Shown here piece after piece: positions 13,679-38,788 of a DNA stretch of 64,000 nt (the first letter of the stretch is position 1; each line of letters begins with the position of its first letter). The position numbers and the translations under genes are program-made. Location: the NCBI GenBank assembly GCA_963773905.1, contig CAVZDB010000005.1:181624-245623 (forward strand). Reading direction: 5' to 3'. Below the pieces are notes generated by a model. The model was not told the DNA's origin, made no database searches, and worked only from the letters and a program-made list of their open reading frames with translations. Origin of the DNA: an uncultured Acidobacteriota bacterium (GTDB lineage Bacteria; Acidobacteriota; Thermoanaerobaculia; UBA5066; Gp7-AA6).

Positions 13679-13742
13679 GGGGAGACTGTAACCGGAGAAC
13701 GAGACGCAGGAATACGCGATTGACCTCGAGGGCGTGCCTAGA

Positions 13743-21952: not shown

Positions 21953-21999
21953 GGGGTCAACGCTGAAAAACTGAATTCAGGGATTCAGCATTTGAACCC
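21953..21999. repeat. GGGGTCA-family inverted dimer (GGGGTCAACGCTGAA variant)
   Basis: ggggtcaacgctgaa...ttcagcatttgaaccc; similar copies at 26969 and 31118. Confidence 0.85.
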
Positions 22000-22021
22000 A
22001 TTCCTGTTTGGGGTCTACCGT

Positions 22022-25160: not shown

Positions 25161-25186
25161 AATACACGAATACACGATTGACTCCC
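25161..25186 (-). repeat. GGGGTCA-family site matching the RAYT terminal repeat
   Basis: aatacacgaatacacgattgactccc versus tacaggaatacacgattgacccc at 34984. Confidence 0.8.
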
Positions 25187-25198
25187 AGGCCATCCGGC

Positions 25199-25594
25199 CT
25201 AACCGTGAACGTACTTTTGAAGCTCGATCACTGCGCCCGAGCGGGTTCCAAGCTGGTAGACGAGCACCTTGTCTTTCCCAATCGTCAGGACGATGCCGTG
25301 CGTGAGCTTGTCGTCGCTCCTGGTCTCTTTCGCCTGCGGCAACGCGTGGCGATACCAGTCCTCCACCACACCGAGGGAATCCCTGGTCTGCGCGGTGTAG
25401 ATGGAATACGTCAGGCCATTCGTGGTGGAGGGCGGGTACTGGGTTCCGGTCGTGGCGCTCGGGTAGAGCGGCAGGCCCGTCTCGTTCTTCTGATTTTCCT
25501 CCGCCAACGACCGCCCCGGCGCGACAAGCCCGGCGATGACAAGGACAAGGGCCGCGGCGACGATGAGGCCACCGTGTCGGAACTTCATGACCAC
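25199..25594 (-). CDS. Secreted hypothetical protein (cassette-like)
   Basis: GAGGAGG RBS, signal peptide, GLPLYPSA. Confidence 0.75.
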   Translation of the reverse strand: MVMKFRHGGLIVAAALVLVIAGLVAPGRSLAEENQKNETGLPLYPSATTGTQYPPSTTNGLTYSIYTAQTRDSLGVVEDWYRHALPQAKETRSDDKLTHGIVLTIGKDKVLVYQLGTRSGAVIELQKYVHG

Positions 25595-26770: not shown

Positions 26771-26968
26771 GTGCGCAGTCAATGCGCTGGCCACGTCTCT
26801 GTGATCTTCACGAAGCGACCTCGCGAGGGCGTCTGACCCGTGCACGTCGCCAACGTGCTTTCAACCAGTGTTTCGATGCCCTTCGCCACAGCCATGGCCG
26901 ACAGCATCACCCGGGATCAGACGGGTGGCTTCCATTGCAAAGGCCTCCGTTTGATCTGGTCGCGGCCT

Positions 26969-27016
26969 GGGGGTGAACGCTAAAAAGCTGAATTCAGGGG
27001 TTCAGCGTTTGAACCC
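26969..27016. repeat. GGGGTCA-family inverted dimer (AACGCTGAA variant)
   Basis: gggggtgaacgctaaaaagctgaattcaggggttcagcgtttgaaccc. Confidence 0.8.
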
Positions 27017-27031
27017 ATTCCTGTTCGGAGC

Positions 27032-29143: not shown

Positions 29144-29548
29144 CTACTTCTTCAGGCTCGTCTTCCAGGTGCCGGTGTCGACGACCTTGCCCTTGTACAA
29201 CGTCTCGAACTTTCCCGAGAACGTCGGGCCGGCCTTCGTGCCCGTGATCCGGGAAGAGGCCTTGTGGCCCTTGACCTCGAAGTCGTAGGCGGCCTCGATG
29301 GAGTCGCCCTTCACGACGAGCGAGGTCACGGGGGATTTCGTTGGCTGCCCGTCCAGCACGGCGATGACTTCGCCGGTCCAGTTGCCGCCTGGGCCCGGGC
29401 TAAAAGTGAGTTGATAGCCGCCGCTCTTGCCTGCCTTATTGACGTATTCGCCGACGTACGTTCCGGCGATATCTTCCTCGGCGCGCACTACGACGGACAT
29501 CAGAATCAGGGCCGCGAGGGTAAGCACAATCGCAAGGTTTCGTCTCAT
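29144..29548 (-). CDS. Secreted hypothetical protein, cassette B copy 1
   Basis: Signal peptide; near-identical to 32939-33337. Confidence 0.75.
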   Translation of the reverse strand: MRRNLAIVLTLAALILMSVVVRAEEDIAGTYVGEYVNKAGKSGGYQLTFSPGPGGNWTGEVIAVLDGQPTKSPVTSLVVKGDSIEAAYDFEVKGHKASSRITGTKAGPTFSGKFETLYKGKVVDTGTWKTSLKK

Positions 29549-29924: not shown

Positions 29925-31089
29925 CGATCGCCCGCCTGGAAGTTAGTTCTCCTTGTTCTGGCTGAAGTTGACCTGGTACGGCTTCCCGCTCTGCGCGATG
30001 GCGAGGAGGCGGTGGCAGAGCTTGCGCGAGACGGCCACGATGGCGCGCTTCCCGCCGCGGCGAGCCTTAATCCTGTCGTAGAAGCGCCGCATCTCCGGGT
30101 CCTTGCCGATCAGGATCCAGGAGCTCTCCACGAGGACGCTGCGAACGACCGGGTTACCCTGGCGCGTGATGTGACCGTGGCGGATGCGCTCGCCGCTGGA
30201 ATGCTCGGAGGGAGTCAGGCCGGCGTAGGAGCTCAATGCCTCGCCGTCGGGGAAGCGGGAGAAGTCCACGATCTCCACGACCAGCGTAAGCGCCGTCAGC
30301 CAGCCGATCCCAGGAATGGTCGACAGCAGCTCCACCATCGGCGCGTAGTCTTCGGACCGGGTCATCTGGCGCAGCTCCTTTGTCAACGCATCCACGCGGG
30401 CGTCCAGATCGAAATAGATACCGCGCAGCTCCTCGAGCACGCGATCGAGCGAGCGATCGTCAAGCTTCAGCCCGCGCAGCCACGCCTCGAAGTCCCCGCT
30501 CCAGTGCGCGCCCGCCTCTTCGGGAATCTCGATGTCGTAGGTTAAAAAGAACGACTTGATCCGCACCATCGCCGCGCAGCGCTCCCGCTGCACCCGGTGG
30601 CGCTGGCGAACCAGCTCGCGATCTGCACGCTGCCGCACTTCCGGAACGAAGATCGGCCTCAGCAACCCGGCCTCCAGAGTCCGCGCCAGCTTAAGCCCGT
30701 CCCGACGATCCGTCTTCACCCGGTTGCCGATCTCCCCAGGCACGTGCGCCGCGGACACCACCATCGAATCCACCTGGCGCAATCGCAGCCAGTCGTGTAG
30801 CCAGTATCCAAACGGCCCCGTCTCGTACGCGCTGTGGACCCGACATCCCTCAAACCGAGCTAGCAGCCCGTTAAGCGCCTCTCGCCTAGGAGGGAAGCTC
30901 GCACTCAGCAGCGTCTCGCCTCCAGACCGAGCCGTCACGTGCCAGGACGTCTTCGAAATATCCAGCCCCAGAAACACCTCGGATCCGCTCGCCAACCTCA
31001 CTCCATCGCGCATGGCCCTCCTCCTCACCCTCAGAGTGCCACGCAAGCCTCCCTTCCTCCGCCCGTCAGCCACGGCCCTAACATAGCGG
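29925..31089 (-). mobile_element. IS110-family insertion sequence inserted within a GGGGTCA-family site
   Basis: Flanks ggtcagtct (29916-29924) and tgattctttgattttt (from 31091) rejoin into ggtcagtcttgattct, matching the reverse complement of the intact site at 36101-36121; no TIR or long TSD. Confidence 0.8.
29943..31013 (-). CDS. IS110 family transposase/recombinase (DEDD RuvC-like plus Tnp20 domain)
   Basis: FLGLDISK, YETGPFG, VKTDRRDG, TIPGIG and YAGLTPSEHSSG; GAGGAGG RBS before ATG 31013. Confidence 0.95.
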   Translation of the reverse strand: MRDGVRLASGSEVFLGLDISKTSWHVTARSGGETLLSASFPPRREALNGLLARFEGCRVHSAYETGPFGYWLHDWLRLRQVDSMVVSAAHVPGEIGNRVKTDRRDGLKLARTLEAGLLRPIFVPEVRQRADRELVRQRHRVQRERCAAMVRIKSFFLTYDIEIPEEAGAHWSGDFEAWLRGLKLDDRSLDRVLEELRGIYFDLDARVDALTKELRQMTRSEDYAPMVELLSTIPGIGWLTALTLVVEIVDFSRFPDGEALSSYAGLTPSEHSSGERIRHGHITRQGNPVVRSVLVESSWILIGKDPEMRRFYDRIKARRGGKRAIVAVSRKLCHRLLAIAQSGKPYQVNFSQNKEN

Positions 31090-31117
31090 TTGATTCTTTG
31101 ATTTTTCGGCGGGTCTT

Positions 31118-31276
31118 GGGGTCAACGCTGAAAGGCTGAATCCAGGGATTCAGCGTGAACCCCATTCCTGCCCCATCGAATCAGATTCAGGGCTGACCCC
31201 AGCTAGCCCCAACCCGACAGCCGTGGTCAGCAGCGAATTCAACGTGGCGAACAATCAAAGAATCGGCACTGACCAC
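31118..31276. repeat. Cluster of GGGGTCA-family sites
   Basis: Dimer 31118-31163, then gaatcagattcagggctgacccc 31178-31200, then degenerate aatcaaagaatcggcactgacc 31253-31274. Confidence 0.8.
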
Positions 31277-32747: not shown

Positions 32748-32825
32748 CTCTCGACGAAGATCTACTACCCAACGTTCTTGCGATCGAGATGACTGAGGGA
32801 CATTTTACATGATTGGGCATTTGGC

Positions 32826-32890
32826 GGTCAGTCCTGATCTCTGATCTCGGGCTAGTTCGCAGAGCGCAATCAGAAATCAGGACTGAACCC
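32826..32890. repeat. GGGGTCA-family inverted dimer
   Basis: ggtcagtcctgatctctgat...atcagaaatcaggactgaaccc. Confidence 0.88.
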
Positions 32891-32938
32891 AATTAGCCCA
32901 AGAACAACCCACCCTGTGCTGCTCTCGACCCGTGAGTC

Positions 32939-33337
32939 CTACTTCTTCAGACTCGTCTTCCAGGTGCCGGTGTCGACGACCTTGCCCTTGTACAACGTCT
33001 CGAACTTTCCCGAGAACGTCGGGCCGGCCTTCGTGCTCGTGATCCGGGAAGAGGCCTTGTGGCCCTTGACCTCGAAGTCGTAGGCGGCCTCGATGGAGTC
33101 GCCCTTCACGGCGAGCGAGGTCATGGGGGATTTCGTTGGCTGCCCATCCAGCACGGCGATGACTTCGCCGGTCCAGTGGCCGCCTGGGCCCGGGGTGAAA
33201 GTGAGTTGATAGCCGCCGCTCTTGCCTGCCTTGTTGACCTACTCGCCGACGTACGTTCCGGCGATGTCTTCCTCGGCGAGCGCTGCGACGGACATCAGCA
33301 TCAGTGCCGACAGGGCAAATGCAAGGTTTCGTCTCAT
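32939..33337 (-). pseudogene. Cassette B copy 2 with an in-frame TAG
   Basis: Colinear with 29144-29548; the Tyr codon TAC is TAG at 33239-33241. Confidence 0.75.
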
Positions 33338-33368
33338 GGAGGCGAAGTTACCATCTCGGCCAGATGTG

Positions 33369-33390
33369 ATCAGAAATCAGGGCTGACCCC
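33369..33390 (-). repeat. GGGGTCA-family site
   Basis: atcagaaatcagggctgacccc. Confidence 0.85.
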
Positions 33391-33690: not shown

Positions 33691-33814
33691 AGATTGCTCC
33701 TTCGACGACAGCAGGAGGGCTGGCCCAATTGTGCGCCTCCCGCCGCTTCTCGGCAATCGGCTTTTGATTCCGATCCTAGAAATGCGGGGCGCCTTTCAGC
33801 GCCCCGGTGTGCGA

Positions 33815-33894
33815 GGGGTCAGTCCTGATTCCTGACTTTACGGTTCGGCCGGCCCGCGGGACGGTTCAGGCAATCAGGGATCAGGACCGAACCC
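33815..33894. repeat. GGGGTCA-family inverted dimer
   Basis: ggggtcagtcctgattcctga...aatcagggatcaggaccgaaccc. Confidence 0.85.
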
Positions 33895-33939
33895 ACCTTC
33901 CCGCCTGGTCGCCGCCTTGCAGTCTTAATGCAATGATCC

Positions 33940-35006
33940 GGGGTCAATCGTGTATTCCTGTATTTCCCGCTTCGAAGAGGCAAGCCAGGCGGTCGACGTG
34001 ACCGCGAACTGAGTCGTCTCGCGTCATCAACTTCTCGAGCCTGGTCAGACCGCGGTGAAACGTCGACTCCTCGCGCCTGAAGCATCTCGCCATCCGGGCA
34101 ATCGAGAATCCCTCACGACAACCGAGATACGCAGCGATCAGCCGGGTCCGTGAGGCCGCCGAAGACTTTCCGGCCCGCCTCAGCTCTTCCAGGGAGAAGC
34201 CCTCCGCCTTGGCGACCGCATCGGCCAGGCTCTCAGGGGTCCACCCGCTGGGAAGTCGGACGGTCTCCCCCACGATCGCCATGGATCGCTGGACGAACTC
34301 CGGATCTCCCTTGACTGGGAAGCCGCCGGCGACGTCGTCGTAGGACTGCTGGTCGCGGTCTCCCATCATTCGCCGGTAGGCCGCCGCGGCCCCCCTCCGA
34401 TCCGACGCGAGTCGCCCCATCGCGACGTCCAGATCCAGCCAGTCTGGGCCACGTCCGCTTCGGTAGTAGCGATCGCTCGACCACGAGTACGACTCGGGCC
34501 GACTCACCATCCCGGCTCGGACCGGGTTGAGGTGGATGTATCGAAGCAGCGCGAAGAGGTACTTCTCATCTTGAATGAGAAAGGCCTTGTACCGCCCTTG
34601 GAAGAGATGGCCCGATCGCCGGTGCTTCGAGTTGAAACGCTGTGCGTAGAACGAATGCAGCGCCAGCATCGCGCGAGAGAGCGGAAACGGTCCACGCTCC
34701 ACCGCCACGTGAATGTGGTTGCTCATCAGGCAGTACGCCAGGATACGAAGCCGGAATCTCTCCCGGCACTCCGCAAGCCGCTCGAGGTAGATCTCACGAT
34801 CCCGGTCGTCGCGAAAGATGGCCTTGCGTTCGTTGCCGCGGGCAATCACATGGTAGACCGCCCCGGTGAGCTCAACCCGAAACGGCCGCGCCAACGACAC
34901 CTCCGCAGACACCGAGATCCTCTCCCTGCGTCTATCTAAGGTTGTCGCGAACGGTCACGCCCGCGGCGCGGCGAGCGAAGAATTACAGGAATACACGATT
35001 GACCCC
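33940..35006 (-). mobile_element. RAYT-like Y1 transposase unit bounded by perfect 23-bp inverted repeats
   Basis: ggggtcaatcgtgtattcctgta (33940-33962) and tacaggaatacacgattgacccc (34984-35006). Confidence 0.85.
33944..34894 (-). CDS. REP-associated tyrosine transposase-like Y1 HUH nuclease with C-terminal DnaA-C-like helical domain
   Basis: ARPFRVE..GAVYHVIARGNERKAIF, HUH motif YCLMSNHIH, GHLFQGRYKA, catalytic RYIHLNPVRAG and YSWSS; the stop codon lies in the left IR. Confidence 0.9.
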   Translation of the reverse strand: MARPFRVELTGAVYHVIARGNERKAIFRDDRDREIYLERLAECRERFRLRILAYCLMSNHIHVAVERGPFPLSRAMLALHSFYAQRFNSKHRRSGHLFQGRYKAFLIQDEKYLFALLRYIHLNPVRAGMVSRPESYSWSSDRYYRSGRGPDWLDLDVAMGRLASDRRGAAAAYRRMMGDRDQQSYDDVAGGFPVKGDPEFVQRSMAIVGETVRLPSGWTPESLADAVAKAEGFSLEELRRAGKSSAASRTRLIAAYLGCREGFSIARMARCFRREESTFHRGLTRLEKLMTRDDSVRGHVDRLACLFEAGNTGIHD

Positions 35007-35224: not shown

Positions 35225-35281
35225 ATCACGAAGTCAGCACCGATCGGACCCAGAGCAGTACCAGACTAACCCCGGGACTCT

Positions 35282-35348
35282 GGGGTCAGTCCTGATCTCT
35301 GAACTCGGGCTGCTTCGGAGGGCGAAGTCAGAAATCAGGACTGACCCC
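35282..35348. repeat. GGGGTCA-family inverted dimer (best-conserved copy)
   Basis: ggggtcagtcctgatctctga...tcagaaatcaggactgacccc. Confidence 0.9.
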
Positions 35349-35394
35349 GATTAGCCGCCGAGGCCACGCCGGCGGCGCAGCGGCGGGACAAATG

Positions 35395-35412
35395 GGAATA
35401 CACGATTGACCC
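35395..35412 (-). repeat. Further copy of the RAYT terminal repeat
   Basis: ggaatacacgattgaccc, 16 bp from the stop codon at 35428. Confidence 0.85.
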
Positions 35413-35427
35413 GCTGGAGCTCCGCGA

Positions 35428-36143: not shown

Positions 36144-37058
36144 TCAGCTCTCATCGAAATAATCCGAATCCAGGCGCTTCACTTGATACGTCCGAGCTTG
36201 TGAAACACCAATCTCAAAGTCGATCATGAGTTCGGCCAACCGACGCCCATCGATTAAAGCGACCTTGGGATCGATGTGCTCCACGTAGGCGAGTGCTTCC
36301 GCCGAAAATGACCCGGTCGTGATGAAGACGCCCTTCTTCGCGCGTTTGCCGTGCAGAGCACCCACAAACTTGTGGATTTCGGGGCGGCCCACCGTTCCGT
36401 CCCACCGCTTCGCCTGGAGGTAGACCACGTCGAGGCCAAGCCGATCCTCGCTGATGACGCCATCGATCCCTTCATCCCCCGACTTACCGATAGCCTGTCC
36501 AGCGTCCTTCCGCGAGCCCCCGTAGCCCATCTTCAGCAGCAACTCGACCACCAGTTCCTCGAAGAACGAAGGCGATGCCGCCTTCACGCGGGCGATGACT
36601 TCTGCTGCGAGACCTGCTCTGATCCTTGCGTGGGCCGCCTCAAGGGCTTCTTCCGGTGTTTCAGTTTCCTCTTGCGACGTCGCGCTCATGCCAGGCGTCG
36701 CTTCCTCTTGAGACCGGGCCGTCCTGAACTCGACAAACTCCGGATATCGATCGAGAAACTTGATGTCGACTCGGGTGGGAGGATTCTTGAGGACCTCCCG
36801 ACCTCTCTCGGTCAGCTGGAAGTGGCCGCGTCGCGGTGGAGCTGAGGAGCCCGGCTTGCTGAAGGTAGCTTCTCGCCCAAGCGACGCGATTCGCAAATCT
36901 GGTCTGCCGCCCGCTCGGAAGAAGCTCTTCCTTGTCGTCAGGAGTCAGCTGAACTCAACCGCGAGGGCGTTGGCCGCCGCAGCCAATGAATGGGCTTCGC
37001 CGTCGGCGGCAATTTGTAGGAGGGGCAGCATGAATGATTGGAAGTCAGGCACAGTCAT
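36144..37058 (-). CDS. mrr: Mrr type IV restriction endonuclease, frameshifted at about 36850-36960
   Basis: N-terminal MTVPDFQSFMLPLL and LLPSGRQ; C-terminal FFEELVVELL, SGDEGIDG, YLQAKRW and KGVFITT. Confidence 0.9.
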
Positions 37059-38583: not shown

Positions 38584-38788
38584 GGGCGGGCGCGAGGCCC
38601 GCCCCTACGGTTTCGGGGATGGAATCAACGGCGGAAAGCGAGGGAGAAGAAGAGTGCAGCGTGGCGTGGTTGGGGTCCGCCGTGGCGGGCGGACGCGAAT
38701 GGACGGGCACCGAGAGGGCGGGCGCGAGGCCCGCCCCTACGGTCGTGGCGGCGACAGGACGACGGGCGGGGGCAAGCCCCGCCCCTGC
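38584..38788 (-). repeat. Three GTAG-type REP palindromes
   Basis: gggcgggcgcgaggcccgcccctac at 38584 and 38716, variant at 38764; the minus strand reads GTAG plus a GC hairpin. Confidence 0.85.

Follow-up and report, generated by a model that had tools for sequence, protein, structure and literature searches.

A Y1 transposase gene between terminal inverted repeats in an Acidobacteriota genome is a TIRtron, with repeat dimers around it that are most likely relics of sibling elements

Genes that resemble those of REP-associated tyrosine transposases (RAYTs; REP, repetitive extragenic palindrome) and are bordered by terminal inverted repeats (TIRs), not by REPs, were described by Di Nocera, De Gregorio and Rocco (2013, BMC Genomics 14:522), in whose account the elements are called TIRtrons and their enzymes TIRYTs. 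As the passages of that paper on the repeats have it, many TIRtron repeats share the motif GGGGWSAS and may overlap the end of the gene, some make up moderately abundant families that occur as singles, dimers and clusters, and one sharply defined TIRtron group is that of the Acidobacteria. According to the corresponding passages of Quentin, Siguier, Chandler and Fichant (2018, BMC Genomics 19:475), most TIRYTs fall into subclass 2.1 of TnpA_REP, with a C-terminus that is either Bac_DnaA_C-like or a short helix-turn-helix (HTH), a domain whose role is there called unknown. Here we report that positions 33940-35006 of a 64,000-nucleotide stretch from an uncultured Acidobacteriota bacterium (the window; G000:C5:181624-245623, in an assembly of 4.19 Mb, 9 contigs and ~69.5% G+C that is 82% complete) belong to this class, as the 2013 passages describe it, and are not a new kind of element. 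We see here, with good confidence, a TIRtron of ~1.05 kb that encodes a TIRYT and ends in 23-27-nt TIRs starting with GGGGTCA; the dimers next to it, built from two other repeat variants, would most likely be relics of sibling TIRtrons whose genes were lost or are unassembled.

The passages of the 2013 paper match this locus in several respects: a tyrosine transposase that resembles RAYTs but exceeds them in length, terminal inverted repeats in place of REPs, a repeat that overlaps the 3' end of the gene, repeats present as singles, dimers and clusters, and paralogs of one genome with differing repeats. The locus departs from them in the last base of its own (A-type) repeat, which is not that of the consensus, and in the two neighbouring families, B and C, which have no cognate gene in this genome. 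By description we assign the protein to subclass 2.1, subgroup 2.1.2, of Quentin et al., who in the passages on it equate the subclass with the TIRYTs; shared traits are a protein among the longest of the superfamily, the Bac_DnaA_C-like or short HTH C-terminus and the lack of nearby REP-like hairpins. Unlike those passages, which report no repeats near the genes, our survey places flanking repeats at 50 of 66 loci. 'Group 1' of the RAYTs of Bertels et al. (2017) may be this same class; the passages of that paper do not allow the two to be mapped onto each other. An earlier note on this DNA had spoken of an atypical recognition site, a description superseded by the GGGGWSAS motif of the published class as its passages give it. 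What we add is modest: a wide comparative confirmation, the sub-repeat architecture of the ends and the finding that the repeat families next to the element are orphans.

The element is bounded by a perfect 23-mer, GGGGTCAATCGTGTATTCCTGTA, at 33940-33962 on the plus strand and 34984-35006 on the minus strand, just as the earlier note had read it; with up to 3 mismatches allowed, the 23-mer matches three times, where 100 shuffles give an expectation of 0.00. At 96% the inverted repeat is 27 nt long, and its arms stand 1013 nt apart. The parts of the element and its solo repeats are as follows.

33940..35006, minus strand: complete A-type TIRtron of 1067 bp, both repeats included
33940..33966, plus strand: terminal inverted repeat at the 3' end of the gene, holding the codons for the C-terminal NTGIHD as well as the TGA stop
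33944..34912, minus strand: TIRYT gene, 322 aa, with a Y1/HUH domain at about residues 12-145 and a DnaA-domain-IV-like HTH at about residues 219-312
34980..35006, minus strand: upstream terminal inverted repeat, non-coding, 72 nt from the GTG start
25163..25185, minus strand: solo A-type repeat with 2 mismatches in 23, 13 nt downstream of the open reading frame (ORF) 25199-25594
35391..35413, minus strand: solo degenerate A-type repeat, in a 30-nt stretch 87% complementary to 33941-33970 and in the orientation of the upstream repeat

As had also been noted before, the stop codon lies inside the left repeat: TGA at 33944-33946 is the TCA of the left GGGGTCA, and this repeat supplies the last six codons and the stop of the gene. 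The C-terminal NTGIHD is retained in 6 of the 17 aligned homologs. Both of the further single A-type copies that had been announced are present, and a weak one lies at 13705. Taken singly, the units form no structure (z +0.7 to +0.9), and neither end of the element contains a hairpin, which bears out the view that these sites are neither IS200/IS605 ends nor classical REPs.

The protein reads as a RAYT-type Y1/HUH tyrosine transposase fused to a DnaA-domain-IV-like HTH, an assignment made from profile matches and alignment. Pfam Y1_Tnp matches residues 18-127 at 6e-14, and the NCBIfam equivalog REP_Tyr_transpos reaches 86.1 bits (cut-off 80); the NCBIfam IS200 model NF033573 fails, at 19.3 bits against a cut-off of 55. 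H66 and H68 of the HUH motif and Y125, which we take to be the catalytic tyrosine, are invariant in an alignment of 18 sequences. The C-terminal part matches Pfam Bac_DnaA_C weakly (residues 227-285, 0.014, 15.8 bits, under the Pfam cut-off), and a profile of the family compared with solved structures finds DnaA domain IV at residues 219-312 (3pvp, 1.5e-9; 1l8q, 3.3e-8; 1j1v, 4.2e-4), with the family's GREEST segment paired to the GRDHTT helix of DnaA. All 63 of the 63 homologs scanned contain Y1_Tnp; Bac_DnaA_C is found at E<=0.01 in 38 of the 63, in 11 above the Pfam cut-off, and shorter homologs match other HTH models. The family is large, with 7111 clusters at E<=1e-10 among 8000 candidates scored. 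Like IS608 and ISDra2 of the IS200/IS605 group, then, the element has a Y1 HUH transposase and makes no target duplication; unlike it, those elements carry subterminal hairpins and not terminal inverted repeats in the passages that describe them, and the IS200 model does not recognize its enzyme.

Do the homologs of this protein bring such repeats with them? From 593 confirmed loci we took the best 80, one genome per species, by way of an alignment of 18 homologs; 14 of the 80 were dropped for a missing flank, leaving 66 loci. A flanking inverted repeat was called significant when its score exceeded the maximum (14) of 198 shuffles, and 50 of the 66 loci have one. Both arms contain GGGGTCA at 38 loci and GGGTCA at 48, and at 23 of the 66 TGACCCC supplies the gene with its TGA stop. 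The nearest homologs come from metagenome-assembled genomes of Thermoanaerobaculia (Acidobacteriota), and the hosts extend over Acidobacteriota, Nitrospirota, Thermodesulfobacteriota, Pseudomonadota, Omnitrophota, Methylomirabilota and others. The check proposed at the outset, on a conserved GGGGTCA repeat in homolog flanks that varies with the protein, thus came out as foreseen, in the 38 loci with both arms and in an inner part that follows protein phylogeny.

In a set of 49 repeats, conservation covers GGGGTCAG and the (G/T)YCT after it, and the inner part is lineage-specific. GGGGTCAG or GGGTCAG can be read in 43 of these 49 homolog repeats and also in the B-type units nearby. The inner part often consists of two direct sub-repeats: 18 of the 49 have exact copies >=5 nt long (4.6% of shuffles do), and with a minimum of 4 nt the number is 29 (18% of shuffles); among these 29, the period is 7 or 8 nt in 27. 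The A-type repeat of this element has TGTATTCC/TGTATTTC as its sub-repeats. In a quick maximum-likelihood tree with support from the SH-like approximate likelihood-ratio test (SH-aLRT) only, a finished careful search not having been used, the A-, B- and C-type proteins form separate subclades (SH-aLRT 91, 99 and 95) within one Acidobacteriota clade, and by sequence comparison the inner part of the repeat follows the protein subclade. The variable parts of the repeat saturate beyond close relatives, and relatedness confounds any comparison of repeat distance with the distances of the N- and C-terminal domains.

Repeat and gene also behave as one discrete unit. Three A-type sister elements (L004, G003 and G006) measure 1040-1053 bp; against them each end is identical at 24-26 of 27 nt (the upstream repeat at 24-25 of 27) and the interior at 63-69%, which places both ends under selection. 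In BLAST comparisons with A-type elements of the same genus homology starts at 33940, a match in G049 runs to 35009, 3 nt past the right repeat, and a match in G003 stops within the gene. The flanks of 5 related loci gave no neighbour-protein matches in a comparison made at the protein level and at this divergence, and A-type elements occupy unrelated neighbourhoods in different genomes. A target-site duplication is absent from 43 of 49 elements.

Such a gene might also have been domesticated and have become immobile, its repeats and dimers being kept for the host, for example as terminators or as mRNA-stabilising hairpins after stop codons. Each variant is present as a single copy and there are no identical duplicates; the dimers are stable hairpins; and, with 30 units mapped, the window has 10 sites where the distance from a predicted stop to the end of a unit downstream is 7-45 nt, although these distances rest on our own rough gene calls, based on G+C at third codon positions (GC3). 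A plasmid search gave partial N-terminal matches in 8 of 72,556 records, none of the 8 covering >=80% of the protein, so full-length relatives on plasmids were not found. Domestication is hard to square, however, with a gene that is patchy in its genus, where 10 of 15 sampled genomes hold 1-4 paralogs and the best identity to this protein is only 61%, with A-type elements in unrelated contexts, and with two ends that are conserved as a pair along with the gene. We consider it unlikely.

The window holds three repeat variants: A, which is the gene's own, B and C. B is GGGGTCAGTCCTGATTTCTGATT (GGGGTCAGTCCTGAT... in the dimers); of the 23 units that nhmmer counts genome-wide (E<1), the window has 15, and the other 8 sit close to contig ends, 4 at the end of C1 and 4 at the start of C4. 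C is GGGGTCAACGCTGAA, and the genome has three compact dimers of it. The earlier note had listed five dimers as apparent internally deleted derivatives of the element. The dimers exist, three of B type and two of C type, and none carries the A repeat; several of their arms are degenerate (GGGTTCA, GCGGTCA, GTGAACCCC). Each of the five folds as a single-strand DNA hairpin, with z of -3.1 to -7.5 and -12 to -24 kcal/mol. They are given here, by repeat search and folding, with a sixth, degenerate dimer; none has a strand.

35280..35352: B-type dimer, hairpin of -24.2 kcal/mol, z -7.5
33812..33898: B-type dimer, right arm degenerate
32822..32895: B-type dimer, both arms slightly degenerate
31118..31163: compact C-type dimer within a cluster of degenerate units at 31092-31276; its form occurs as a perfect dimer in G006 (L110)
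21953..22000: compact C-type dimer, right arm degenerate
26970..27017: degenerate C-type dimer, z only -2.0; folded as 26966-27020 it gives -8.6 kcal/mol

Where, then, are the genes of B and C? Elsewhere the B repeat flanks a TIRYT of its own (L014, L017, L019; G003:C10; G008:C178) and the C repeat flanks another (L011, L015, L016; G006; G008:C59). These cognate TIRYTs are 44-47% identical to the protein described here, and two types are sometimes found in one genome. In this assembly, at 82% completeness, we found no B- or C-type TIRYT gene, and the A-type gene is the sole intact TIRYT. C-type units number 28 in G006 and 34 in G008, where the gene is present, and at most 3 elsewhere, this genome having 3. 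No A-type dimer occurs in this genome, which has only solo extra copies; short A-type dimers are found at four sites in G003, of the same genus, with 28-40 nt spacers that all differ and do not match the subterminal sequence of the parent.

A simpler account would have one enzyme make and move all GGGGTCA dimers, with A, B and C as its substrates, derived by internal deletion from a single autonomous element. GGGGTCA is indeed common to all variants, the assembly contains just this one intact TIRYT gene, and the 15 B-type units of the window lie at 11-37 kb, around the gene, with B dimers 41 and 273 nt from the two ends of the element. In related genomes, however, B and C flank distinct paralogs; an A-type dimer is absent here; the C dimers have decayed arms in this genome, and the equivalent compact dimer is perfect in G006 with its C-type gene; and the A-dimer spacers of G003 are related neither to one another nor to the parent. 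Since those spacers differ and are unlike the parent, simple internal deletion of one master copy is not shown. We think a single enzyme improbable. Of the earlier proposal that the dimers are internally deleted derivatives of this element, one part holds: repeat dimers are gene-less TIRtron forms in this class. The dimers of the window belong to sibling lineages with B and C repeats, and the step of internal deletion finds no support in the G003 spacers.

Several observations weigh against reading the locus as a TIRtron among relics of its siblings. The outer end of the A-type repeat, GGGGTCAA, fits GGGGWSAS at 7 of 8 positions, the eighth base being A where the consensus has S, and 16 of the 66 homolog loci lack a significant flanking repeat. 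The N-terminal 160 aa gave chance-level matches only against solved structures (E 0.13), and no solved Y1 transposase among them. The tree is a quick one that carries SH-aLRT support only, and repeats common to sister genes may go back to descent and not to specificity. G001, 66% complete, has 17 B-type units and no TIRYT gene that we could find, which means that repeat families do not simply track the presence of the gene; with an assembly 82% complete, B- and C-type genes may exist unassembled; and because GGGGTCA is common to all variants, the A-type enzyme may cross-mobilise the others. The repeat units are clustered in three regions and not dispersed. Finally, a full-text literature search found no experimental work on any TIRYT, and for that reason what we say of cleavage, of the strand chosen and of the task of the HTH is inferred.

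Two arrangements of units deserve to be recorded beside these families. With the A-type unit at 35391, the element and a B dimer come to be enclosed by an outer pair, resembling the nested pairs of other TIRtrons, and at three homolog loci (L007, L047 and L105, the last at G006:C1:2149350-2150850) each side has two tandem copies of the repeat, with nested inverted repeats of up to 54 nt. Clusters of B units ~20 kb long lie at G001:C14:54-75 kb and G007:C4:17-28 kb, with orientations of 15 forward to 2 reverse and 14 to 6, a bias that is absent in the window.

TIRtrons and the RAYT/REPIN systems (E. coli TnpA_REP, Pseudomonas REPINs) share the Y1/HUH catalytic family, inverted copies of the gene's own repeat on its flanks, dimers that fold as hairpins and a single repeat type for each paralog. 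Unlike REPs, single TIRtron units have neither a palindrome nor a GTAG tag; the enzyme has an extra DNA-binding domain; and the repeat families here are small and clustered, the true GTAG REP family being a separate one. Taken strictly, a RAYT is flanked by a GTAG-type tag with a GC-rich palindrome, and this gene is not. Nor do the dimers form a REPIN population of this gene: they are of B and C type and the gene is of A type, and 15 of the 23 B units (E<1) sit in one 26-kb part of the window.

GTAG-tagged GC-rich REPs, GTAGGGGCGGGGCTYGCCCCCGCCCG, do occur in the window, at 38584-38788. The 11-mer GTAGGGGCGGG has 69 exact copies on 8 of the 9 contigs and 260 at up to 1 mismatch, a large dispersed family, and at C4:580799-581178 four REP copies stand in a 123-bp tandem array. 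On the same contig, between GTAG REPs, lies what looks like a degraded short classical RAYT (L002 1407-1986, minus strand; G000:C4:574.7-575.3 kb, the remnant itself at 574.7-575.1 kb). Its HUH and tyrosine motifs are in different frames and its first ~50 residues are unmatched, and an assembly error is possible. With this remnant degraded, the GTAG REP family is left without an intact RAYT in this assembly. The GTAG REPs to which the earlier note points are real: the family is dispersed and separate, and its own degraded RAYT stands on another contig.

Hairpin repeats after small genes also call integrons to mind. About 14 predicted minus-strand genes at 25.2-37.5 kb, at 58-63% G+C, are co-directional, with hairpin repeats after many stops, and could be read as a cassette array with attC sites; a gene for an integron integrase is present in the genome (431 bits, cut-off 265), and the C-type core GGTCAAC...GTTGACC is one base off the attC core pattern. 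The genome's integron, however, is on contig C4 and has a different, canonical attC family with 0 matches in the window, the A and B variants lack RYYYAAC/GTTRRRY cores, and, unlike integron cassettes, the repeats flank Y1 genes as single inverted half-units at 48 of 66 loci in many phyla. We consider a cassette array extremely unlikely, and we rejected attC sites as an identity for the window repeats after an integrase search (TIGR02249), a scan for cores beside intI and the absence of that attC family from the window. The integron itself is chromosomal and lies at a contig end (G000 C4:584516-590789; L118 covers 583016-586990). Beside intI are 11 attC core pairs, 9 with GCCTAAC...GTTAGGC and 2 one-base core variants; nine of the pairs are 61-76 bp long and two are longer or irregular (one of 149 bp). 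An Rfam scan of the window from 20 to 40 kb returned zero families at gathering score. Among public sequencing runs, one from soil contained 0.05 of the sequence words sampled.

Other genes near the TIRtron are of several kinds. A gene for a 134-aa signal-peptide protein is present in two copies, 93% identical, at 29144-29548 (minus strand) and 32934-33369, the second with an in-frame TAG; the truncated 71-aa ORF of this second copy, the only ORF searched, had no Pfam match. The ~430-bp segment is 80-93% identical across many genomes of the genus, far above its surroundings, and often lies near clusters of TIR units. An IS110-family transposase gene occupies 29943-31073 on the minus strand (Transposase_20, 3e-26; DEDD_Tnp_IS110), and adjoining it, at 31092-31276, a C-type dimer and a GCCC-type unit are nested together with degenerate B-type arms. 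Further on, in a stretch of low G+C, a gene for an Mrr-type restriction endonuclease (36144-36896, minus strand; Mrr_cat, 3e-36) is followed by a B-type unit 21 nt past its stop.

How might a TIRYT handle its ends? By analogy with other Y1 enzymes, its HUH/tyrosine domain would cut single-stranded DNA at the conserved GGGGTCAG end or right next to it. Once single-stranded, the inverted ends could pair, with GGGGTCAG:CTGACCCC as the foot of the stem, a pairing that would be easy in short dimers and rarer across a 1-kb gene. The conserved HTH, with its GREEST helix similar to the GRDHTT helix of DnaA, would most likely dock on the conserved core, and the inner sub-repeats, with their period of 7-8 nt, may mark each lineage's own ends and in this way confer lineage specificity. 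We put forward, as a tentative proposal that may well prove wrong, that TIRYTs recognize their ends in two parts, unlike every Y1 enzyme studied: a DnaA-domain-IV-like HTH, conserved throughout the family, would bind the equally conserved double-stranded core GGGGTCAG(G/T)YCT, and lineage-private tandem sub-repeats with a period of 7-8 nt, just inside that core, would provide each paralog with ends of its own.

As it stands, the finding rediscovers an element already described and leaves existing knowledge unchanged. The class raises the questions of what its DnaA-like domain is for and of the way in which true terminal inverted repeats are processed by a Y1/HUH enzyme, and the A, B and C variants with their cognate paralogs, all in one genus, offer a comparative set suited to specificity-swap experiments. 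If the proposed recognition is right, a Y1 enzyme would read true terminal inverted repeats through the DNA-binding module of a replication initiator, and not through DNA hairpins. We envision that TIRtron lineages that do not interfere with one another could then coexist in one genome and, upon loss of their genes, leave behind orphan families of repeats.

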